From a virus (taxonomy: Duplodnaviria > Heunggongvirae > Uroviricota > Caudoviricetes), in the IMG/VR virus record IMGVR_UViG_2734482774_000009: DNA of 8,682 bases; one strand, written 5' to 3'. A program made the position numbers and the translations under genes. Positions 1-8,682 of the stretch are shown piece after piece (within the stretch, counting starts at the first letter, position 1; the number at the start of each line of letters is the position of its first letter). A model generated the notes under the pieces. The model was not told where the DNA came from, did no database searches, and saw only the letters and a program-made list of their open reading frames with translations.

Positions 1-153
1 ATGGCAAAGCCGATCATCACGCTCAATGGCCTAAAAATCGTCATTATGTTGGGAATGCTGGTCATTATTCTCTGCGGTATCCGTTTTGCCGCCGAGATCA
101 TCGTGCCGTTTATTCTCGCATTATTTATTGCTGTTATATATAACTTATTTTGA
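1..153 (+). pseudogene. tqsA: 5' fragment (50 codons) of an inner-membrane transporter gene, TqsA (AI-2 exporter)-like N-terminus; frame diverges after about codon 46 and stops at 151-153
   Basis: Hand translation: [45 protein letters not shown] then IYNLF-stop. Strongly hydrophobic, TM-helix-like. Identity to TqsA/YdgG is recalled, not searched. Sequence becomes AT-rich and non-coding immediately after, consistent with an insertion junction near 138-150. Confidence 0.45.
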
Positions 154-756: not shown

Positions 757-848
757 CCTTAATCATCTGCGTAAACATAAGTAATCATAATGATCATTCA
801 GCCAGCGCAATTTTGAGCTTTGCTTTAATCTCAGTGAGTTACCGCCGC
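757..848. repeat. Direct repeat copy 2 (about 92 bp), abutting the 3' end of the 89-aa minus-strand gene
   Basis: ccttaatcatctgcgtaaacataagtaatcataatgatcattcagccagcgcaattttgagctttgctttaatc... aligns to 636-718. Confidence 0.6.
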
Positions 849-1108
849 AACCGTTCCGGCTTCTTCCAGTGGTACGTGATTTTCTCCTTCTCCCGATACA
901 TCTCCACGCGGCGACGGTATGCCAGCAACTCAAGGACTCTGGTTCGTATGTTGCGCTTAAGCTCAATACCATCACGGCGCATCACCTCAGCAACAACACG
1001 CGCATAATTTTCAGCGGTCACGCTGTCCGGTTGCGTGCCCTGTTCGTCATGCTGCTGGCTGATTCCGGTAACGCGGCGGATTAATCGCAGTAGTTCGGCT
1101 TCTGTCAT
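839..1108 (-). CDS. Hypothetical 89-aa protein with basic C-terminus, located just outside cos copy A
   Basis: ATG at 1108 preceded by GGGGG Shine-Dalgarno on the minus strand; TAA stop at 839-841. No family recognised from sequence. Confidence 0.5.
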   Translation of the reverse strand: MTEAELLRLIRRVTGISQQHDEQGTQPDSVTAENYARVVAEVMRRDGIELKRNIRTRVLELLAYRRRVEMYREKEKITYHWKKPERLRR

Positions 1109-1141
1109 TGTGCCCCCATCGTTCTGATAGCCTGGTGTCGT

Positions 1142-1345
1142 CGGGTCCTTCCTGGAATTATGGCCCGTTACGGGGCGGCGACCTCGCGGTTTTTATCTGT
1201 TTATGAAAATTTTCCGGCAAAAGTCAGATCCGTTCTTCTTCTCTGTAACAGACTGTTTAACAATGAAAATATTAAAAAAAGAAAGGATCTGACACGAGGC
1301 ATTTTAGCCAGAAAATGCCATTATCAGATCCTTTCTCATTTTTGT
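1142..1345 (+). other. cos site copy A: cosQ-like segment, cosN (GGGCGGCGACCT at about 1173-1184), then a lambda-like cosB running rightward
   Basis: ttacg-gggcggcgacct-cgcgg matches the lambda cohesive-end region as recalled. Downstream tatgaaaattttccgg (1202-1217) is identical to the lambda 16-mer; ccgttcttcttc (1230-1241), aaagaaagga (1278-1287) and cctttctcatttttg (1330-1344) resemble lambda R3/R2/R1 Nu1-binding elements. 1142-1188 is one arm of a perfect 47-bp inverted repeat with 2036-2082. Confidence 0.8.
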
Positions 1346-1363
1346 TCAATAATTGCGCTTCTG

Positions 1364-1906
1364 TTACTTGCCTTTCTTCTGTAGCAACTTTTCCGGTACG
1401 TTTCCGGTTGTTTCTTTCAAGTAATCAGCCAGTATCTGTGGGAGGTTGTCGGCAACTCTGGCACTGGCATTACAGGCTTTAACCACTTCCCTTTTAAGCC
1501 TGTCCAGCATGGCGGGGGTAATCTGTGGGAAGCTCCTTTGCATAGTAAGCGGGAGGCTGTCCATGATTGATGAAATCTGACTCGCCAGCTTTGAAAGCGC
1601 GTACAGGCAAAACTCAGTATCAATCACGTCACCGCGATCGCGCTCGTTTTTAAGTTCCTGCGCCTCCGCCTGTGCTGTCAGTAATCTGATCCTGACTCGT
1701 AAGAGTTCATCATCATCAATATCGCCTTTGTCGTTTGTAAGCTGGCTAATTGCATTGTTAACCCTATTGTCTATCACGCTGGCAACATCATAAAACGCCT
1801 CACGGCCTTTACGTTCAACGGGAGTCACTCCCCACTTGTCGAACGCTGTCGCACTTACACGGCAGCTTTTCGCCATGTTTTTTTTGTTCATCAGATGAGA
1901 TTTCAT
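1364..1906 (-). CDS. Terminase small subunit, lambda Nu1-like (180 aa)
   Basis: C-terminal two-thirds aligns closely by eye to lambda Nu1 (LTAQAEAQELKNERDRGDVIDTEFCLYALSKLASQISSIMDSLPLTMQRSFP versus lambda LTRAQADAQELKNARDSAEVVETAFCTFVLSRIAGEIASILDGLPLSVQRRFP); N-terminal HTH-like region is more diverged. Start ambiguous among ATGs at 1906, 1891 and 1876 (no strong Shine-Dalgarno for any); the MNKK start at 1891 aligns best with Nu1 MEVNKK. Confidence 0.85.
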   Translation of the reverse strand: MKSHLMNKKNMAKSCRVSATAFDKWGVTPVERKGREAFYDVASVIDNRVNNAISQLTNDKGDIDDDELLRVRIRLLTAQAEAQELKNERDRGDVIDTEFCLYALSKLASQISSIMDSLPLTMQRSFPQITPAMLDRLKREVVKACNASARVADNLPQILADYLKETTGNVPEKLLQKKGK

Positions 1907-2082
1907 TAATACACCAACTTAATTACTGCTTCAGGTTGGTGTATTGTTTGCATCTTTCCCTTTTCATTCATAAAGATAGAGCAAACAACAAAACCACCAC
2001 CACCCCCCTGAAAAGGCTCATAAATAGCGAAAACGCGCGAGGTCGCCGCCCCGTAACGGGCCATAATTCCAGGAAGGACCCG
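1907..2082 (-). other. cos site copy B (inverted): cosQ-like plus cosN (2040-2051 on plus = GGGCGGCGACCT on minus), with a divergent cosB between cosN and the terS start
   Basis: 2036-2082 is the exact reverse complement of 1142-1188. On the minus strand cosN is followed by cgcgcgttttcgctatttatga (lambda: cgcgggttttcgctatttatga), then diverges. An 11-bp inverted repeat AATACACCAAC / GTTGGTGTATT (1909-1919 / 1935-1945) sits immediately upstream of terS. Confidence 0.8.
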
Positions 2083-2083
2083 T

Positions 2084-2106
2084 AAAAAAGCCGGATTTCT
2101 CCGGCC
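2084..2106 (-). terminator. Rho-independent terminator closing the capsid operon
   Basis: Minus strand reads GCCGGAGAAATCCGGC followed by a T-run (plus-strand aaaaaagccggatttctccggcc). A near-identical hairpin recurs at 4355-4376. Confidence 0.65.
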
Positions 2107-2111
2107 TTGTC

Positions 2112-2525
2112 TCAGATGGTTTTCAGTATGCGATCGATGTCGCCGTCATCGCCCTGGTTTCTGCCATCGTATGCCATGCCAGCTGATACGGCTTGCGGGC
2201 TGTGCATGTCCATAAAGTTTTCAAAGGCTGCGGTAAGTTCCGGCGCAACCTTCGGACGTTCCTGCTCTATGGTCATGCTAAGGATGCTTTTAGCCGTACC
2301 AACATCGATACAAGGCACGTTTGCCATTGCACGCAACAGCGGCTGATAGTCTTTATGCTCATGAAGCGCCATAATCGCATCAGCGCGCGGCTTGTCCTGC
2401 TCTTCCAGTTTGTTTAGTTGATATACGGCCTCATAGGTTGATAAACCTCTGTCAGCCATTGCCCGCGCTTCGGCTTTAAATTTACTCGCCAGCGGTAGCG
2501 TCATGATGCTTTCATTCGTTGCCAT
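2112..2525 (-). CDS. Hypothetical 137-aa protein, last gene of the capsid operon
   Basis: ATG at 2525 with GGGGGA Shine-Dalgarno; 12 bp downstream of the gpD-like stop. Acidic C-terminus (DDGDIDRILKTI). No family recognised. Confidence 0.6.
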   Translation of the reverse strand: MATNESIMTLPLASKFKAEARAMADRGLSTYEAVYQLNKLEEQDKPRADAIMALHEHKDYQPLLRAMANVPCIDVGTAKSILSMTIEQERPKVAPELTAAFENFMDMHSPQAVSAGMAYDGRNQGDDGDIDRILKTI

Positions 2526-2537
2526 CGTTCCCCCTGC

Positions 2538-2873
2538 TTATCGGGCCAGCGGCTGAACGGATACGCCGGAACCCGCAAAGGCGGCGCATTTTTTCGCATC
2601 GGTGTCGACGCTCTCAGGCCAGTTAACGGCGGCAATATTGAATATCCCCGTCTTGTAACACTGTGCTGATTTCTGCTTTGACGTGTCCACAGGGTACGAG
2701 GTCAGATAAACAGCCTTGCCAGATTCCTTACCATCCCACGGCTTAAACTCGCCATTGTCCGCCAGCATCAGCGGGGTAAATTCCTGAATAACGCCAGCAT
2801 CAGCGGCAAAATGTACCAGCGTCGTGGCGACCTGCTGACTGCCTGCAAATAACTCAATGTATGGAGTGTCCAT
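2538..2873 (-). CDS. Head decoration protein, lambda gpD-like (111 aa)
   Basis: Motifs shared with lambda gpD as recalled: TPLML(A/D), WDG, YK(T/S)G(I/T)F, WPE, KK(C/R)(A/T)AFAG; same length class (lambda D is 110 aa). GGGGGGA Shine-Dalgarno before ATG 2873. Confidence 0.85.
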   Translation of the reverse strand: MDTPYIELFAGSQQVATTLVHFAADAGVIQEFTPLMLADNGEFKPWDGKESGKAVYLTSYPVDTSKQKSAQCYKTGIFNIAAVNWPESVDTDAKKCAAFAGSGVSVQPLAR

Positions 2874-2885
2874 AGAATCCCCCCG

Positions 2886-3941
2886 TTAACCAATTTTGAC
2901 GGTAACAAATTTGCGAATATCTGCCGGTACCGGCTGCGGTGCACTGTGTGTCTGCACGTACTCAATCGCCGGATCGCCGTCCTCAATCCAGTTTTTCGGG
3001 TAAAACATGTTTTGTGTTGCGCCCGTTCTTACCGCTTCCTGATCCATTATCGCACCATAGGCCACCAGCCCTTTATTGTTGGTGTTGCCCAGAACCAGCA
3101 AATCAGGCTCAAGGAAATATTTTTCTGTGCCGTCGCTGTCAGCGTATTTGCCGGAATAGACGATAAGGGCAATATCGCCCAGATAGCCTTTAAAGCTCAC
3201 CACTTCGCCCAGGTTTTTACAGGCCAGTTCTGCGGCGGATTCTGAACCACGGGAAAGATCGTACAGCTCACGGAATTTTTTAAAGCTGCGTAACGTGCGC
3301 CATACCTCAGCGCCCATAATCATGACGTTTGCGGGGCAACCAGCCTGATCAGCATAAAGCTCGATGTCATAGATTGGGTCGTGCATCTCTTTATCCTGCT
3401 CGGACCATTTTTTACCCTTGCCCTGCTCTATGATGCAGTTTTCCGGTATTTTCCAGTCTATTTCATAGCGTTCTATGCCTTCGCCCTCAATAATGTTTTT
3501 TCCGGTCGTTATCGCATTCACCGCCAGCCATTCCACGCGCGCTTTAATGGCGTTTACCTGGCGGCGCATGTTGCCAGTAATCAGGCGCATACGTCGGTAG
3601 GTAGGGTCGTTAAGCTGTGCCGGATCTTCTCCAGCCATGCGCATGATGGTTTTTGTTGGATCGATTTCGTGCTTTGGCTTCATGTAGCCAGGTTTAATCG
3701 TGCTGGTTTCGTATCCTTTATCGCGCTGTACCTGGCTGCCAACCATAGGCGAACAAAACGCCGACATGGTGACTTCTTCAATGTCCAGGGTATCCAGCAT
3801 GATGTTTTGGGTGCTGAATGTCGCCACGTTCGGGAAAAACAGCGTGGTAAACAGCGGACTGAATTTAAATTCCGCAATATCCCCGCGATTCAGGTACGCA
3901 AAAAGCTGGTTAGTGTTAAGTGCCGTTGCTTTGCCTGCCAT
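2886..3941 (-). CDS. Major capsid protein, lambda gpE family (351 aa)
   Basis: Blocks matching lambda gpE as recalled: FKF(S/D)PLF, PGY(M/V)KPKHE(I/V), DP(T/A)YRR(M/R)R(L/I)I, VLGNT, YPKNW; similar length (lambda E is 341 aa). TAATG overlap with the upstream 68-aa gene; GGGGGTGA Shine-Dalgarno. Confidence 0.9.
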   Translation of the reverse strand: MAGKATALNTNQLFAYLNRGDIAEFKFSPLFTTLFFPNVATFSTQNIMLDTLDIEEVTMSAFCSPMVGSQVQRDKGYETSTIKPGYMKPKHEIDPTKTIMRMAGEDPAQLNDPTYRRMRLITGNMRRQVNAIKARVEWLAVNAITTGKNIIEGEGIERYEIDWKIPENCIIEQGKGKKWSEQDKEMHDPIYDIELYADQAGCPANVMIMGAEVWRTLRSFKKFRELYDLSRGSESAAELACKNLGEVVSFKGYLGDIALIVYSGKYADSDGTEKYFLEPDLLVLGNTNNKGLVAYGAIMDQEAVRTGATQNMFYPKNWIEDGDPAIEYVQTHSAPQPVPADIRKFVTVKIG

Positions 3942-4147
3942 TATTCACCCCCATAATTTTTATGCATCCCAAGCGCCGCAAGTAAATAAGAGCGCACAAG
4001 TGAACCTATCGACGGCTCCGGCGTCATCAGCGGATCCAGTCCAGCCGCTACGCCAGCCTCATAGTTTTTTTTGTGGCGCTGCTTGAGCACCTCCACGATT
4101 TCGGGGCTTATGTACACCGAAACACCGCCTTTTTTCTCTTCTGCCAT
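3941..4147 (-). CDS. Hypothetical 68-aa protein, first gene of the capsid operon
   Basis: ATG at 4147 with AGAGGAA Shine-Dalgarno; stop overlaps the capsid gene start (translational coupling). No family recognised. Confidence 0.55.
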   Translation of the reverse strand: MAEEKKGGVSVYISPEIVEVLKQRHKKNYEAGVAAGLDPLMTPEPSIGSLVRSYLLAALGMHKNYGGE

Positions 4148-4180
4148 AGTCAGAAATTCCTCTTTGACTTAAAAAATCAC

Positions 4181-4231
4181 AACTGGATGTTCATCCAGTT
4201 ATGATTATAATCATGATTGCATTTTGCGCAA
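4181..4231 (-). promoter_or_regulatory. Putative capsid-operon promoter with operator palindromes
   Basis: Perfect 20-bp palindrome AACTGGATG-TT-CATCCAGTT (4181-4200; CTG-N10-CAG spacing). Adjacent palindrome ATGATT-AT-AATCAT (4201-4214) contains TATAAT; candidate -35 TTGCGC on the minus strand at 4231-4226 with 16-bp spacer. Confidence 0.4.
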
Positions 4232-4305
4232 TAAAATTGAGTTGTGTTGCAAATTATGAAATGATTTACAGCAACAGTAGTCACCATGCTGTTAACCTCG
4301 TAAGC

Positions 4306-4348
4306 AAAAGCCCGATAAGCTTCCTCCTGTACTTATCGGGCTTTTTTT
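4306..4348. terminator. Hairpin terminator, likely bidirectional
   Basis: Stem GCCCGATAAG / CTTATCGGGC (4310-4319 / 4332-4341), T7 run after it on the plus strand and an A-run before it (a T-run on the minus strand). Confidence 0.6.
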
Positions 4349-4354
4349 GGGTAC

Positions 4355-4376
4355 AAAAAGCCGGATTTTCTCCGGC
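4355..4376 (-). terminator. Rho-independent terminator after the SSB gene
   Basis: Minus strand reads GCCGGAGAAAATCCGGC then TTTTT; 9 bp downstream of the SSB stop. Near copy of the 2084-2106 hairpin. Confidence 0.65.
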
Positions 4377-4384
4377 CTGTGCGT

Positions 4385-4795
4385 TCAGAACGGAATATCA
4401 TCACCGTAGGGGTCATCGTCTCCCGCTGGTGGCTGATTACCCTGTGCGCCTGTGGTTTTGCGTCTGTTCCCGCCAGGACGTGCCGCACGGGCACTGATTA
4501 CGCTGTCTGCAATAACCTGATAACCCTGCCGCGTTTCCCCGTTCTGTCCGGTCCACTGGCTTATCTGCATCACGCCAGATATGCTGGCAACGTCGCCTTT
4601 TTGATGTTTAGCCAGGAAGTCGGCCTGCTTACCAAATGCCATCACCGATAGCCATAACGTAGCCGTTCCGTCATCTGCCTGGCTGCACGGAAGGGGGACC
4701 GCCATACGCGCCAGCGTCATCGGTGTGCCCTTGCTGGTCTGTTTTACCTGCGGGTCGTCCACCAGCCGCCCGTAAGCGGCTATCTGTGCTGTCAT
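4385..4795 (-). CDS. ssb: Single-stranded DNA-binding protein (short SSB, 136 aa)
   Basis: C-terminal acidic tail DDDPYGDDIPF (E. coli SSB ends DDDIPF); OB-fold-like N-terminal region; Gly/Pro-rich linker. GGAGAGGTGG Shine-Dalgarno; ATGA overlap with the upstream gene. Confidence 0.85.
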   Translation of the reverse strand: MTAQIAAYGRLVDDPQVKQTSKGTPMTLARMAVPLPCSQADDGTATLWLSVMAFGKQADFLAKHQKGDVASISGVMQISQWTGQNGETRQGYQVIADSVISARAARPGGNRRKTTGAQGNQPPAGDDDPYGDDIPF

Positions 4796-5106
4796 GATTC
4801 CACCTCTCCGGTTTTAACGTTGATGGTTGTTACCTGTTCCGCTTCGGCAATCTCCCGTTCTGTCAGCGTGGCAAAGTTTGCCGCCGCTGTGGTCATGAAT
4901 GCGCTTATCAGTTCGGGATGTTCCTTCGCGTATCCTTCCCGCGTGTGGCGGTCTATCGTTCTGATTGCCACCTTTAAGGTGTGCTCAGTCATGTCTAACG
5001 CTTTATATTTTGGCTCTGTTCTGTCTCTGCGAATTTTGGTCATTTGTCGCCCCTGATTCATGTTTTCGGCTGGCATGTTTGTTAAGTGATTTTGATGTAT
5101 GCGCAT
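4792..5106 (-). CDS. Hypothetical 104-aa protein co-transcribed with ssb
   Basis: ATG at 5106 with strong GAGGGGGTGA Shine-Dalgarno; an alternative internal start at 5043 also has AGGGG. Stop overlaps the ssb start. No family recognised. Confidence 0.55.
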   Translation of the reverse strand: MRIHQNHLTNMPAENMNQGRQMTKIRRDRTEPKYKALDMTEHTLKVAIRTIDRHTREGYAKEHPELISAFMTTAAANFATLTEREIAEAEQVTTINVKTGEVES

Positions 5107-5153
5107 TTATTTTCACCCCCTCGTTTAAAAAGTTTTTAGTTGTGCCTCCCCCC

Positions 5154-5382
5154 CTCTACCCATCTACCCGAATGCTCATCATGTCAGTAATGGCGCGGCT
5201 TTCAGCGGGTAGATAGCTTTTTGAGCTCCTCTACCTGCCGTCTACCCTGCTACCTGAAACTGATAAAATCAGGTAGAAGAGGTAGAGAGCTTTTATTAGC
5301 CTTCTACCTGGCCCTCTACCCACTTATCATGTTGAATAATATGTATTTATTTCATTCAGGTAGATGGGGTAGAGGGCTTTTA
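5154..5382. repeat. Putative replication origin: iteron array plus AT-rich segment
   Basis: At least 11 copies of the hexamer core TCTACC / GGTAGA in both orientations within about 225 bp, where about 4 would be expected by chance in the whole window. Three extended copies GGTAGA-nnGCTTTT at about 5208, 5281 and 5368. AT-rich stretch at 5326-5357. Lies immediately downstream of the primase stop (5390). Confidence 0.65.
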
Positions 5383-5389
5383 CAAAAAA

Positions 5390-7138
5390 TTATAAAAACG
5401 CGTCGCAATCGTCTGTTGTAATTGCGTTGGTCTGCGTTACTCCCTTAACTTTTCGCGTAATATATTCATGCCCGTAAACTTTCGCCGCTGGCTTCATGGC
5501 CTTGCTGAACTCAGCCACGTTTAGCGGTTTGCTCCTGCCTGCGTATGCCATAAACGCCAGATAGACGCGGTAAAGGCTGTTCCTGGTCGTGTACTTCACT
5601 GAATCACCACCGCCACCCATCATCAGGCCGCGCGCTTCCTCCAGAAAATTCAGGAACTGGCAAAACTCAATAACCGGATCCGTCTGTTGCTTTATTGCCA
5701 GTGCTTCATCACCGTCACGCTGTTCCAGTAGTAAAGCCCTCGCCTTTTCAGGGTCGGTAAAGTTCGCCAGCAAGCGGCGGATAATAACGGGGATTTCAGC
5801 CGCAATTTTTTCCGGTAGTTCCCTGTCTTTTTCGGCCTCACTAACAATATTGTCGAAACGGAAAATCACGCGACGACGTGCCACACCTCCGGCCCGTTCG
5901 GTGAATATCATCGGGTTATTATTGGTCGCCAGCACCACCGCCCTGATTACCGCCGTGAAACGCTTTTCATATTTCGGGTTTATTTCCACGGGGTCGCCGC
6001 CCGTGATTTTCTTGATGCCCGTTCCTTCGCCTGTATATTTCGGCTGGTCTGCCAGGACGATAAGACGACTCCCGACAACCTGCGCACGTCCACCAGCATC
6101 ATCAAGCGATGTCATTTCAGCGCTTACCGTGTTCTGTTTCCCTGCCAGAAGGCTGGCTATGTGTGTGAATGTACTTTTACCGCTCCCGCCGTCTCCGGTG
6201 GCCTCAATAAACATCTGCCAGTCGTACCGGTTCGCCATAATCATGTACAGCGCGGCACATATACGCATCATCTTGCGCGGGTCTTTTCCGGCTGCGTGAT
6301 CAAGCCATTTATGAAAGTTTGGCGCGTTGTCGCGGATATTCTCCCCTGGTGCTGGTGGCGTGTATTCAATGCCGTTGTGCGTGGTGATCCAGTTCTCCGG
6401 CGTGTGCGGGGAAAATTCCCCTGTTTTCAGGTCAAGCGCACCATTGGCGAACGGCAACAAATCGCCGGACGGCTCGCCCATTGGTTCGGCAATAACTTTT
6501 AATGCTTCCACGGCGTTATTGATTACGCGCTTGCTGAAAGTGGCCCTGTGCTCTGAATAGATCGCCACCATTTCGCGGCTAAGTTCCATTGTGCTGACCG
6601 GACACCATACCCCGCCGCGCCATACGTGAACGATTTCACTTTCCGGATGCACACAAACGCCATCAAATCGACCAGCAAGCATCTGTGCGCGCTCACTGTC
6701 TGCCATTTGTGCCAGTTGCGTATTTTTCTGCTCCGGCATGGTAAGCCCTGCGGCAATATTTTCACGCTCAGCATTCAGATAGCGCCGCCAGTTTTCACAC
6801 TTCTGGACGTGCATTCCTTCGTGGTAAAAATTTGCGTCCTGAATATCTGCCGCCGCCAGCTTCTGACCAATCTTTTTGGTCTCCACTAAATCCAGTTCTC
6901 CGGCCTGGTACAGCCTTACGCGCTTTTTCCCATCCGGAACAATTTTCAGCGCATCAAGTTCGGCAAGCTGCTTTGGCCCAAGCCACACAGGCGGCACATT
7001 ATCGCCGGATGCGGGGCCATCCTGCTCCTGCCATTGTTTCGCGTGCGACCAGGCATCACTACCCGCAAAGATAATTACCTCTGTGTCTTTGTGTTTTATT
7101 CCGCGTGGCTGTTTTTTTACGTTCGGTGCCAGTTTCAT
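5390..7138 (-). CDS. Replication initiator: P4-type primase/helicase (582 aa)
   Basis: Walker A ATGDGGSGKSTF and Walker-B-like LIVLADQ in the C-terminal half, with an N-terminal primase-like region, as in P4 alpha / PICI Pri-Rep-type proteins (recalled). AGGGG Shine-Dalgarno; ATGA overlap with the upstream 99-aa gene. Confidence 0.85.
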   Translation of the reverse strand: MKLAPNVKKQPRGIKHKDTEVIIFAGSDAWSHAKQWQEQDGPASGDNVPPVWLGPKQLAELDALKIVPDGKKRVRLYQAGELDLVETKKIGQKLAAADIQDANFYHEGMHVQKCENWRRYLNAERENIAAGLTMPEQKNTQLAQMADSERAQMLAGRFDGVCVHPESEIVHVWRGGVWCPVSTMELSREMVAIYSEHRATFSKRVINNAVEALKVIAEPMGEPSGDLLPFANGALDLKTGEFSPHTPENWITTHNGIEYTPPAPGENIRDNAPNFHKWLDHAAGKDPRKMMRICAALYMIMANRYDWQMFIEATGDGGSGKSTFTHIASLLAGKQNTVSAEMTSLDDAGGRAQVVGSRLIVLADQPKYTGEGTGIKKITGGDPVEINPKYEKRFTAVIRAVVLATNNNPMIFTERAGGVARRRVIFRFDNIVSEAEKDRELPEKIAAEIPVIIRRLLANFTDPEKARALLLEQRDGDEALAIKQQTDPVIEFCQFLNFLEEARGLMMGGGGDSVKYTTRNSLYRVYLAFMAYAGRSKPLNVAEFSKAMKPAAKVYGHEYITRKVKGVTQTNAITTDDCDAFL

Positions 7139-7434
7139 TTTTTACCCCTGAATCCGTTAATCATGGTTTTCAGCTTCTGGATGTTTGCCCGTGCCCTGGC
7201 GTTGCTGGTGGGCACGTTATGCGGCGCGGTCTGTACCAGAGAAAAATCACGCCGGAACTGATAAACAGGCATCACGCAATCATATTCGTAACCTTCACGG
7301 CGGTAAGTTACGCACCGTCCCGCCACGCCCTTAATCATTACCGTGCCGCCGTACTGGTCGCGGTAAATATCACCGCGCGTAAATTTTGGGTGAGTGTTGC
7401 CACTGGCAGTTAAGCCAGAATATTTAAGTTTCAT
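7135..7434 (-). CDS. Hypothetical 99-aa protein, translationally coupled to the primase
   Basis: ATG 7434 with GGAGA upstream; stop overlaps the primase ATG. Confidence 0.55.
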   Translation of the reverse strand: MKLKYSGLTASGNTHPKFTRGDIYRDQYGGTVMIKGVAGRCVTYRREGYEYDCVMPVYQFRRDFSLVQTAPHNVPTSNARARANIQKLKTMINGFRGKK

Positions 7435-7439
7435 TATTT

Positions 7440-7667
7440 TTATTCTCCGGTGTGGGGCGCGTTATTATTTTCGTGAATTGCCATCGCCTTATCCAGTTCA
7501 TCAATTACAGGCGATAGTAATGTCTGAACGGCGGCAAGCATTAATGACGAAGATTCTTCTCCAGCTTCCGTTGCTTCAATTAATTTAATTAACAACGCAT
7601 TCATTTCGCGCGCTTTAATTAATGCGTTTTCAGAGTGGATTAATACTTCAAAAGGGATTTTATTCAT
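7440..7667 (-). CDS. Hypothetical 75-aa protein (predicted helical, acidic)
   Basis: Start chosen at internal ATG 7667 (AGAGGG Shine-Dalgarno, ATGAATAA overlap with upstream stop) rather than the track's 7712 start. Confidence 0.5.
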   Translation of the reverse strand: MNKIPFEVLIHSENALIKAREMNALLIKLIEATEAGEESSSLMLAAVQTLLSPVIDELDKAMAIHENNNAPHTGE

Positions 7668-7896
7668 GGCGTACCCTCTGAATATCTGCGGTAAGAATTT
7701 TACCTGCCTCATTCAGCGCCATATCAGCACTAAGTTGCATAACCGCCAGCGAATGAGGGACGAAAGCCCCGGCATATTCTGTTTCACTGGTGGCGTGCTT
7801 ATGCGCCCTGTCAGCAATAACAGAAATATCAATCAGCGCGTGCATCAGCGTAGTGAGCGCGGCGGCGGCTGCGTCCGGTGTGGTTTTATTGCACAT
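7660..7896 (-). CDS. Hypothetical 78-aa protein
   Basis: Start chosen at ATG 7896 with strong GGAGGGG Shine-Dalgarno; the longer track ORF (to 7953) lacks a Shine-Dalgarno and would overlap the upstream gene by 68 nt. Confidence 0.5.
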   Translation of the reverse strand: MCNKTTPDAAAAALTTLMHALIDISVIADRAHKHATSETEYAGAFVPHSLAVMQLSADMALNEAGKILTADIQRVRHE

Positions 7897-8119
7897 GGTG
7901 TACCCCTCCGCATTTTTTTTCGTTAGAAATAAGCGTTCTTCTTTCCTGTTCATCGCTCAGGAATACGCAGACCTCACCGCTAAGGCGTTTAAGTAAGCCG
8001 ATGATTGCCCCTGATTCGCTGTCGGTCATCATGCCAGGGTAATCCTCTGCCAGTGCGCAAATAACTTCGATTTGGTGGGCGCGTTCTGCTGCCTGCTGTA
8101 GTGTGATTTCCTGACTCAT
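7886..8119 (-). CDS. Hypothetical 77-aa protein
   Basis: Track ORF begins with a TTG at 8176; the internal ATG at 8119 has a GGGGG Shine-Dalgarno and an ATGA overlap with the upstream 64-aa gene stop. Confidence 0.5.
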   Translation of the reverse strand: MSQEITLQQAAERAHQIEVICALAEDYPGMMTDSESGAIIGLLKRLSGEVCVFLSDEQERRTLISNEKKCGGVHHVQ

Positions 8120-8310
8120 AAGCCTACCCCCTGACGAATACGGGCGGCGAATACAGCCACACAACCGGACGGGCAACGGCTACGCGCTTCGCGTTCCGTC
8201 CAGGCGGTGACGTGGATGATTTGAGATTCTCCGGCACTCAGGGCCAGAAAACGCCACACAAAGGCAGTTTGTGTGTGTACAAGGTGTGGTATATGATTTA
8301 CGGCAACCAT
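8116..8310 (-). CDS. Hypothetical 64-aa protein, first gene of the replication operon
   Basis: ATG 8310 with GAGGAG Shine-Dalgarno at good spacing; no family recognised (not AlpA-like, no Ogr/Delta zinc-finger pattern). Confidence 0.5.
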   Translation of the reverse strand: MVAVNHIPHLVHTQTAFVWRFLALSAGESQIIHVTAWTEREARSRCPSGCVAVFAARIRQGVGL

Positions 8311-8377: not shown

Positions 8378-8473
8378 TTTCAACACCTTGCCTAAATAAG
8401 GTGTTGAACACCAATTTAAATCGAGGTGTTAAACACGTCAAGTGTTGAACACTTATTTTTTTTCCTGCATACT
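8378..8473. promoter_or_regulatory. Divergent control region with three 11-bp palindromic operators GTGTT(G/A)AACAC and a half-site
   Basis: Sites at 8401-8411, 8426-8436, 8442-8452, plus half-site caacacc at about 8381-8387. Candidate plus-strand promoter: -35 TTGAAC (8445-8450, inside operator 3), 17-bp spacer, -10 CATACT (8468-8473). Confidence 0.55.
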
Positions 8474-8502
8474 GCATTTGTTTTTTATGAGGGGTGCTCA
8501 AC

Positions 8503-8682
8503 ATGGCGACAAAAGCAGTAAACGCAAAATCACAAACAGTTGCGGCAAGGGTTCCACATGAAGTTATGAACAATGTTGAGGCGGTAAAAATGCCCGGCGA
8601 AAGTACAGGGCAGTTTGTTACAGCTGCATTAAAGCGGGAAGTTGAATACCGCCAGCGTCGCAAGGCCAAAGAATCAGAATAA
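8503..8682 (+). CDS. Small DNA-binding regulator, ribbon-helix-helix (Arc/CopG-like) candidate, 59 aa
   Basis: ATG 8503 with GAGGGG Shine-Dalgarno 8 nt upstream (track ORF starts at a GTG at 8494). Pattern TVAARVPHEV (beta-strand) - MNNVEAV (helix) - G - STGQFVTAALKREV (helix) fits an RHH fold; basic C-terminal tail. Only gene transcribed away from the minus-strand operons. Confidence 0.5.
   Translation: MATKAVNAKSQTVAARVPHEVMNNVEAVKMPGESTGQFVTAALKREVEYRQRRKAKESE

Follow-up and report, generated by a model that had tools for sequence, protein, structure and literature searches.

Two inverted lambda-type cos sites bracket the small terminase gene of a phage-inducible chromosomal island in Escherichia coli

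Results

The window analysed here, an 8,682-nt stretch of DNA (IMG/VR record IMGVR_UViG_2734482774_000009), is the packaging end of an 11-kb phage-inducible chromosomal island (PICI) of the EcCICFT073 family integrated in the host gene tqsA, and within it two lambda-type cos sites of opposite orientation enclose a gene for a 180-aa small terminase (TerS; 1364-1906, minus strand). The cosQ-cosN parts of the sites occupy the arms of an inverted repeat—arm A on the plus strand (1142-1188) and arm B on the minus strand (2036-2082)—in which 47 of 47 bases are identical between one arm and the reverse complement of the other. The match ends at both outer ends; when mismatches are allowed, the repeat grows inward to 76 nt at 88% (1142-1217 / 2007-2082), and about 2e-21 such perfect pairs would be expected by chance in 8.7 kb. 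Compared with the actual lambda ends from NC_001416, both copies align with the right and left ends of the phage at cosQ and cosN: each contains the cosQ core CGGGTCC (1142-1148 in arm A, 2076-2082 in arm B), a 24-nt spacer, and the lambda cohesive-end 12-mer GGGCGGCGACCT of cosN. Because this 12-mer lies on the plus strand at 1173-1184 and on the minus strand at 2040-2051, the two sites are convergent. A preliminary description of the window, which had reported a perfect 47-bp repeat carrying a cosQ-like segment and the lambda cosN core, and which had likened both copies to lambda cos, is borne out on these points. With cosQ and a 12-nt cosN at the right spacing, followed by a predicted cosB with R elements at about bp 48-65 and beyond, each copy has the makeup of a lambda-type cos.

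The arms of the window are identical over 47/47 positions, whereas the perfect core measures 25 bp in CFT073 and about 25 bp is the norm for the family. Mosaics of cosQ variants occur in several related loci (L001, L014, and L037-L041; loci compared here carry L numbers), and fully homogenised 47-bp arms are found in several islands, including the window and L303. Given these mosaics and homogenised arms, and the family norm of about 25 bp, the 47-bp identity is a product of gene conversion. Elsewhere in the window, a cosN-like 12-mer with one mismatch (GGGCGGCGACCC; 5986-6002, minus strand) lies within the primase open reading frame (ORF) and is kept in L012, L024, and L027; since neither cosQ nor cosB accompanies it, it is probably a coding coincidence.

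On sequence comparison, the pair is that published as cos1 and cos2 of EcCICFT073, with copy B corresponding to cos1 and copy A to cos2. At the right end of EcCICFT073 (L003), convergent cosN sites at 2559 (plus) and 3298 (minus) surround the 144-aa rppA, with the same flanking genes as in the window, and the sequences of Fig. S1A place cos1 immediately upstream of rppA and cos2, the inverted site, downstream of it (PMC6092414 / PMC6739421). The preliminary description regarded two convergent sites as unexplained, but the arrangement had already been published and tested (PMC6092414, PMC6739421): cos1 and cos2 were both functional when cloned on plasmids, and cos1 is essential and RppA-dependent, being recognised by an RppA-TerS complex. 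Induction, replication, and packaging by a helper have been shown for EcCICFT073 only (PMC6092414, PMC6739421). The orientation of the pair, its inversion, and the phage class of the cos2 cosB are not discussed in these two papers or in a 2022 review (Murialdo & Feiss, PMC9026076), which treats the Rpp-proximal site only. Beyond family membership, the window and EcCICFT073 (Fillol-Salom et al. 2018 ISME J PMC6092414; 2019 Mol Cell PMC6739421) have in common the order 68aa-gpE-gpD-137aa-[cos]-gene-[cos]-93aa, two convergent lambda-type cosQ-cosN sites around a packaging-specificity gene, a gene-proximal site with an island-specific cosB, and a distal inverted site with three R repeats. They differ in the bracketed gene, which encodes a 144-aa Rpp without an end that binds the large terminase (TerL) in EcCICFT073 and a full-length 180-aa Nu1-family TerS in the window, and in the distal cosB, which is of the ATGTCCGG class there and of the Gifsy-1 class here.

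The bracketed gene product belongs to the Nu1 family (Pfam PF07471, Phage_Nu1, 2.3e-23, covering residues 33-148; phrog_57, 3e-53). Its best matches in a tblastn search against phages are N15 gp1 (46%, 5e-42) and lambda Nu1 (35%), and it aligns end to end with both of these and with 21-class, Gifsy-class, and other lambdoid TerS proteins. Across the DNA-binding domain (residues 1-60), 31/59 positions (53%) are identical to N15 gp1, as opposed to 15/57 for lambda Nu1, and this domain and N15 gp1 are both without the same stretch of ~16 residues found in lambda-type TerS; the middle and C-terminal parts instead match PhiR5_1, an E. coli lambdoid phage, at 37/65 and 22/43 positions, respectively. 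The C-terminal region covered by this alignment binds TerL in lambda. RppA stops before that region, and the local alignment score of the island TerS is 29 to RppA vs 905 to TerS-type relatives. A winged helix-turn-helix (wHTH) at the N-terminus, a central oligomerisation region, and a C-terminal region predicted to bind TerL give the protein the layout of the Nu1 family. It departs from that of Rpp proteins (139-154 aa, with a wHTH and coiled-coil dimerisation and no TerL-binding C-terminus), and an Rpp identity was rejected on length, on the Nu1-like C-terminus, and on alignment score. A PDB sequence search with TerS returned nothing usable and no match to RppC. Islands of E. coli that encode TerS were noted in 2018 (strains IHE3034 and 18098; PMC6092414).

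Copy B leads leftward, as initially described, into a cosB different from that of copy A and then into terS. This segment (1907-2035, minus strand), the equivalent of the published island-specific cos1, runs into the ATG of the 180-aa Nu1-family gene and comprises a diverged I2 (2007-2024, minus strand; beginning TTTATGAG), a GT-rich R3-like element at bp 48-65 (1983-2004, minus strand; GGTGGTGGTGGTTTTGTTGTTT) that resembles N15 R3 (GAGGTTGTTGTTT) at bp 48-60, and an inverted pair of R-like half-sites just before the gene (ACACCAACC, 1934-1942, and GTTGGTGT, 1911-1918, minus strand). A cosB of this type partners the 180-aa TerS in every TerS island examined, and packaging from copy B would run leftward through terS.

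Copy A is followed rightward by the equivalent of the cos2 cosB (1189-1345, plus strand), consisting of I2, R3, an I1-like spacer, an inverted R2, and R1. The stretch identical to lambda that had been pointed out there is confirmed as an 18-mer that constitutes I2 (TTTATGAAAATTTTCCGG; 1200-1217, plus strand). The resemblance claimed for the R elements holds in geometry only: R3 (1225-1236, plus strand; CAGATCCGTTCT), the inverted R2 (1280-1291), and R1 (1325-1336) are spaced as in lambda, but their sequence is CAGATCC rather than the CGTTTCC of lambda, and the Salmonella phage Gifsy-1 has the same three elements. Packaging from copy A would run rightward. A scan of IMG/VR with the R3...R2 pattern recovered 91 matching stretches, 49 of them phage contexts with genes for a ~181-aa TerS and a ~650-aa TerL after the cosB; most of these Gifsy-class contexts use another cosN (GGGCGGCAGCGT or GGACGGCAGACG), and one (L179) has the lambda cosN. 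A Gifsy-class cosB with its own terS, as in a prophage, is also present in 38 complete E. coli genomes. This class of copy A was recognised only by the pattern scan and not by whole-segment blastn—a search of 1100-2130 against the phage collection matched mainly cosQ-cosN-I2-R3, and only SerU-LTIIb (73% identity) reached R2-R1.

Across the islands, the second site falls into at least four classes by the sequence of its R elements: CAGATCC (Gifsy-1 type, as in copy A), ATGTCG (phage 21 / CFT073 phi4 / PhiR5_1 type), three copies of GGTTGTTG (N15 type), and ATGTCCGG (EcCICFT073 cos2 type, with identity of up to 90% to cosBs from 66 phage contexts that have lambda cosN). TerS islands hold a CAGATCC module, an ATGTCG module, or none. 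In the IMG/VR sample, eight of ~31 TerS loci (L026, L033, L046, L056, L058, L080, L082, and L018) have the gene-proximal site only, and in all eight the 93-aa gene begins 12 nt past the terS stop; when one of them is aligned with the window, copy A appears as an insertion of ~250 bp, which identifies it as an optional module of that size. In the second site of every two-site island examined, cosQ, cosN, I2, and the three R elements are all intact. One and the same 62-aa TerS N-terminus is shared by islands with either module class (3 and 8 loci) and by single-cos islands. Since an unchanged DNA-binding domain cannot explain recognition of two R sequences, the reader of copy A is probably a helper TerS of matching class. 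The island TerS, a candidate reader in view of the lambda-like geometry of copy A, was rejected, its DNA-binding domain being identical across R classes and in single-site islands. In terms of its elements, the second site can be described as a swappable helper-class cosB module—of Gifsy-1, 21, N15, or a fourth class, from E. coli prophages, that reaches 90% identity with EcCICFT073 cos2—that the island's own TerS would not read. The published statement that PICI cosBs are "completely divergent" is true of cos1 but, on this classification, not of cos2, since second-site cosBs belong to phage classes.

Three further observations concern second sites in related islands. In CFT073, prophage phi4 (L003 39745-42381) lies ~36 kb from EcCICFT073. 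The R elements in the phi4 cosB are of the ATGTCGG type (phage 21 class); they agree with the second-site cosB in some TerS islands, among them L007, but not with EcCICFT073's own. In L089 (3975-4600), a phage terS survives as its 5' start (GTGGCTACGCAGACTGAAGTTGCCAGGC, also present in phage contexts L187 and L191), joined to an rpp remnant; an island and a helper phage have recombined at cos here, leaving this cassette as the scar. Two related islands with a 194-aa TerS homolog (L104 and L115) have a non-lambda cosN (GGGCGGCAGACG; GGTACGGGTACG / GGGACGGGTACG) on both convergent arms; within each island, the alternative cosN is the same on both arms, and the arms co-vary between the islands, so that either the match of both to the helper nuclease is maintained or each arm homogenises the other.

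The orientation of the bracketed segment was examined with a synthetic query in which 1189-2035 was reversed, and collinear one-piece matches in complete E. coli genomes were counted. The TerS cassette is oriented as in the window in 487 genomes and flipped in 5 (92% coverage), the RppA cassette in 63 and 15, and a gene-less cassette of ~524 nt in 3 and 44, respectively; in the IMG/VR sample, gene-less loci divide into 4 of one orientation and 4-6 of the other. These gene-less cassettes (L047-L053, L057, L060, and L088; about 3977-4501) have lost rpp but for a 3' remnant and keep two facing cosBs of phage geometry, one with three copies of N15-like GGTTGTTG and one with three copies of ATGTCCGG. 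In addition, two strains carry two islands each at different loci, with cassettes in opposite orientations (NZ_CP027342.1, H71 and H96; NZ_CP172217.1, H133 and H150).

Three annotated flipped loci indicate where the exchange occurs. In L006 (at a different att site) and L007 (in tqsA), both flanking genes are on the strand opposite to terS, and the cosQ variants stay with their flanks (q1 by the 137-aa gene, q2 by the 89/93-aa gene) as the cosBs swap sides, which places the crossover within the shared core around cosN. The third, L303, occupies the EcCICFT073 att site and encodes RppA and 93-aa proteins identical to those of EcCICFT073; its inner 727 nt, once flipped back, are identical to EcCICFT073, as are the right-hand cosN and a 700-nt flank. 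Among gene-less cassettes, L057 differs by 1 mismatch from the group of opposite orientation and by 3 from its own, and since orientation does not track flank relatedness, flips have recurred in this class. These data support the invertible cassette as a natural polymorphism. An invertase or dedicated recombinase was not found near the cassette, the only recombinase being the island tyrosine integrase ~9 kb away (L305), and the arms are cos sites, which sets the arrangement apart from an invertase-driven switch. No dedicated enzyme is required for the flip: the gene conversions support homologous recombination between the arms, and the breakpoints are compatible both with this route and with cutting and rejoining by terminase.

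The remainder of the window is consistent with a Gram-negative PICI. Positions 1-153 (plus strand) are a 5' fragment of the host tqsA, its first 50 codons, cut by the island insertion with the left junction near 154; the same stretch is annotated as "pheromone autoinducer 2 transporter, incomplete" in L001, L002, and L305, and in L007 and L305 the remainder of the gene follows past the integrase. L305, the closest full relative, is 98.5% identical over 91% of the window and has an 11.0-kb insert in tqsA with the layout tqsA::[93aa-TerS-137aa-D-E-SSB-primase-...-HTH-integrase] (SSB, single-stranded DNA-binding protein; HTH, helix-turn-helix), in which the tyrosine integrase precedes the remaining tqsA sequence; the window itself stops short of the integrase. 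The outer neighbour of copy A encodes a conserved island protein of 89 aa (93 aa in relatives; 839-1108, minus strand; phrog_1561, 3e-49), for which a PDB sequence search gave nothing usable, and which adjoins the cos pair in EcCICFT073 and all relatives examined. The outer neighbour of copy B encodes a 137-aa scaffold-like protein (2112-2525, minus strand; phrog_1999, 9e-67) that also matches head maturation protease profiles in their C-terminal part (phrog_53, 5e-9, profile positions 495-567). A genome-contig scan with this 137-aa protein yielded no confirmed relatives, and the breadth of relatives was for this reason taken from IMG/VR.

Next to the 137-aa gene lie a lambda gpD-like head decoration gene (2538-2873, minus strand; Pfam HDPD, 2.5e-17) and a gpE-like major capsid gene (2886-3941, minus strand; Pfam Phage_cap_E, 1.1e-50), the counterparts of c1500 and c1499, which are named in the work on EcCICFT073 (PMC6092414 / PMC6739421). 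Further minus-strand genes encode an SSB, a 582-aa D5_N/DUF5906 primase, and small regulators, and all island genes from 839 to 8310 lie on one strand. No genes for TerL, portal, tail, or lysis proteins were found in the window or in the whole L305 island. Several features of Gram-negative PICIs of the EcCICFT073 type are present—an island of about 10-15 kb at a specific att site with an integrase at one end, a replication module, unidirectional genes, and helper dependence by gene content. The complete capsid and packaging set of a capsid-forming PICI (cf-PICI), which comprises TerS, TerL, portal, protease, capsid, and connectors, is not, as the island has only TerS and the 137-aa scaffold-like, gpD-like, and gpE-like proteins, without TerL, portal, or protease.

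Several non-coding features accompany these genes. A terminator-like hairpin read from the sequence (2084-2107, minus strand; stem 2090-2105) follows the 137-aa gene just outside arm B and has a near-identical twin at 4355-4378 (AAAAAGCCGGA(T)TTTCTCCGGCC; direct-repeat family D12). The twins close two minus-strand gene blocks, and the one at arm B would insulate transcription of the cassette from that of the head genes; the hairpin at 2084-2107 is absent from the list of a consensus terminator scan. Immediately 3' of the primase, at 5150-5390, are iteron-like direct and inverted repeats built on GGTAGAG/CTCTACC (D7, I4, and I13), the 2018 paper having placed PICI replication origins 3' of the primase (PMC6092414). 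Three copies of the palindromic 11-mer GTGTT(G/A)AACAC (0.03 expected by chance) lie at 8401-8452, in the gap that separates a minus-strand gene (8116-8310) from a divergent plus-strand gene (8494-8682; YlcI/YnfO family in relatives), and this array looks like the operator array of an island regulatory switch. Finally, the stretch with few ORFs that separates the tqsA junction from the 89-aa gene contains an imperfect direct duplication of ~90 nt (634-846; D2 89%, D8 96%).

Discussion

How the locus is built, its homology with cos1/cos2, the assignment of its sites to classes, its modular makeup, and the polymorphism for inversion are observed, and we propose with moderate confidence that they reflect a TerS-copy B module of the island combined with an optional helper-class site at copy A, which together confer dual specificity and flip via the cosN core. 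Copy B and the adjoining terS would be the island's own packaging module: the island TerS may bind the N15-like cosB of copy B via its N-terminal domain and recruit the helper large terminase via its lambdoid C-terminus, and a cut at cosN would start leftward packaging. Copy A would have been acquired separately, as the same cosQ-cosN joined to a cosB of a helper-phage class, here Gifsy-1, and a helper with a TerS of that class could then package the island directly, giving it a second helper range. The presumed cost is competition between the two sites when both are in use, which is consistent with the published gain in transfer upon cos2 deletion. Because the two sites have cosQ-cosN in common, inverted, recombination in the cosN core would occasionally flip the ~850-bp inner segment, which would account for the natural islands of both orientations. 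The preliminary description had raised dual specificity alongside an invertible cassette and packaging into host DNA; of these three, dual specificity is the best supported, through the Gifsy-1-class cosB, the optional nature of the module, and the class swaps next to a constant TerS DNA-binding domain.

A number of points weigh against this proposal. In EcCICFT073, the sole island tested, cos2 is dispensable, its deletion raises transfer, and it brings no benefit with lambda or phi80 (PMC6092414, PMC6739421); likewise, in a 2018 test, resident prophages failed to mobilise E. coli islands that encode TerS (PMC6092414). The cosB of copy A is at most 79% identical to any phage cosB found, and since most Gifsy-class phages use a different cosN, a helper with lambda-type cosN is documented once (L179). 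A promoter scan gave no convincing consensus match for terS in 1907-2035 or elsewhere inside the cassette. The matching cosN in both arms could be due to gene conversion rather than to selection on both, and cutting of the window sites is argued by analogy with the plasmids carrying the homologous cos1 and cos2 of EcCICFT073.

Some of these points fit an account in which copy A is a functionless or mildly harmful leftover of recombination between island and helper at their shared cos, hitch-hiking with the island in an inverted layout that has no role. We regard this as a possible but distinctly less probable explanation: the rise in EcCICFT073 transfer upon cos2 deletion, the frequency of single-cos islands (the eight loci above), the recombination scar in L089, and the gene-less cassettes as evidence of decay all speak for it, yet all two-site islands examined have an intact second site, no fewer than four distinct phage classes are found at that position, implying repeated acquisition or retention, the arms co-vary with the alternative cosN, and cloned cos2 is functional. 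We consider doubtful a further idea, namely that the cassette is addressable by terminase itself. Nicking of both cosN sites by a helper terminase would release an inner fragment with two identical left-type cohesive ends and leave the rest of the island with two right-type ends, and re-annealing would reinsert the cassette either way or exchange it between co-resident islands and phages. Were this so, the packaging enzyme would catalyse site-specific inversion and shuffling of the cassette, and terminase rejoining would explain the cosN breakpoints, the free reassortment of cosB classes on a constant cosQ-cosN, and the mixed orientation of gene-less cassettes.

The invertible cassette put forward in the preliminary description stands as a natural polymorphism, with three cassette classes and breakpoints at cosN, but not as a programmed switch. 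Phase variation that toggles terS expression or packaging direction would accommodate both orientations in all cassette classes, including the mixed gene-less class, the near-clone of EcCICFT073 that differs by a flip (L303), and the two strains with one island in each orientation; it is nonetheless improbable, as the sole recombinase is the far-end tyrosine integrase, the TerS cassette is flipped in only 5/492 genomes, the arms are terminase sites rather than recombinase sites, the cosQ mosaics point to ordinary homologous recombination or gene conversion, and packaging direction is of little consequence in an excised circle. Still less credible is the third suggestion, that copy B in the integrated island starts leftward packaging into host DNA in the manner of lateral transduction. 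Copy B does point to the nearer end of the island and to the host's mdtJI and ydgD genes, ~1.9 kb away, but cos packaging ends only at a second co-oriented cos, and cos phages are said not to perform lateral transduction (PMC12829572); moreover, the studied relative excises and replicates before packaging, and flipped islands, which would lose the leftward property, persist. That the inverted repeat is an artefact of assembly or sequencing, named at the outset as a possible refutation, we consider practically negligible, given arms shorter than sequencing reads and a collinear layout that recurs in 487 complete E. coli genomes as well as in dozens of IMG/VR contigs.

The arrangement can be compared with other packaging systems. 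Lambda matches the window in sequence or geometry at the cosQ core, the 12-nt cosN, the I2 18-mer, and the R3/R2/R1 layout of copy A, and its Nu1 is the homolog of the window TerS; unlike the window, with two opposed cos sites and no TerL gene, it has one cos followed by co-oriented Nu1 and A, whereas copy A points into the 3' end of terS and has unlike R sequences. N15 (Feiss lab; PMC9026076) resembles the window in the TerS DNA-binding domain and in the short cosB with GT-rich R3 of copy B, but its cosN is GGGCGGCGTCCG rather than lambda type, copy B adds the inverted half-site pair, and the C-terminal half of the window TerS is nearer to E. coli lambdoid TerS. Gifsy-1 shares with copy A the R-element sequence and the R3-I1-R2-R1 geometry, and differs in its cosN (GGGCGGCAGCGT), in the TerS and TerL genes of its own that follow cosB, and in overall cosB identity, which is below 80%. 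Among satellites, the Staphylococcus aureus pathogenicity islands (SaPIs) that use pac also rely on their own TerS to direct helper TerL to satellite DNA, and SaPIbov4 is said to have two putative cos sites (PMC6092414, PMC6739421). However, SaPIs, including SaPIbov4/bov5, have headful pac sites or a single helper cos and are unrelated in sequence, and neither an inverted cos pair nor a flip has been described for them.

Conclusions

Relative to the published work (PMC6092414, PMC6739421, PMC9026076), four points appear to be new: the anatomy of the TerS variant, the phage class of the second site, the modularity of that site, and the natural inversion of the cassette. Together, they make testable a question that those papers left open, that is, why some PICIs carry two cos sites. 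If copy A is indeed an optional site for helpers of a matching class, the natural helpers of these widespread islands—the TerS type is found in 487/5,426 complete E. coli genomes, including O157:H7 and Nissle—would be predictable among untested phages, and the failed mobilisation of TerS-encoding islands in earlier tests would be explained. The cos pair would also mark a recombination hot spot where satellites and phages trade packaging specificity.

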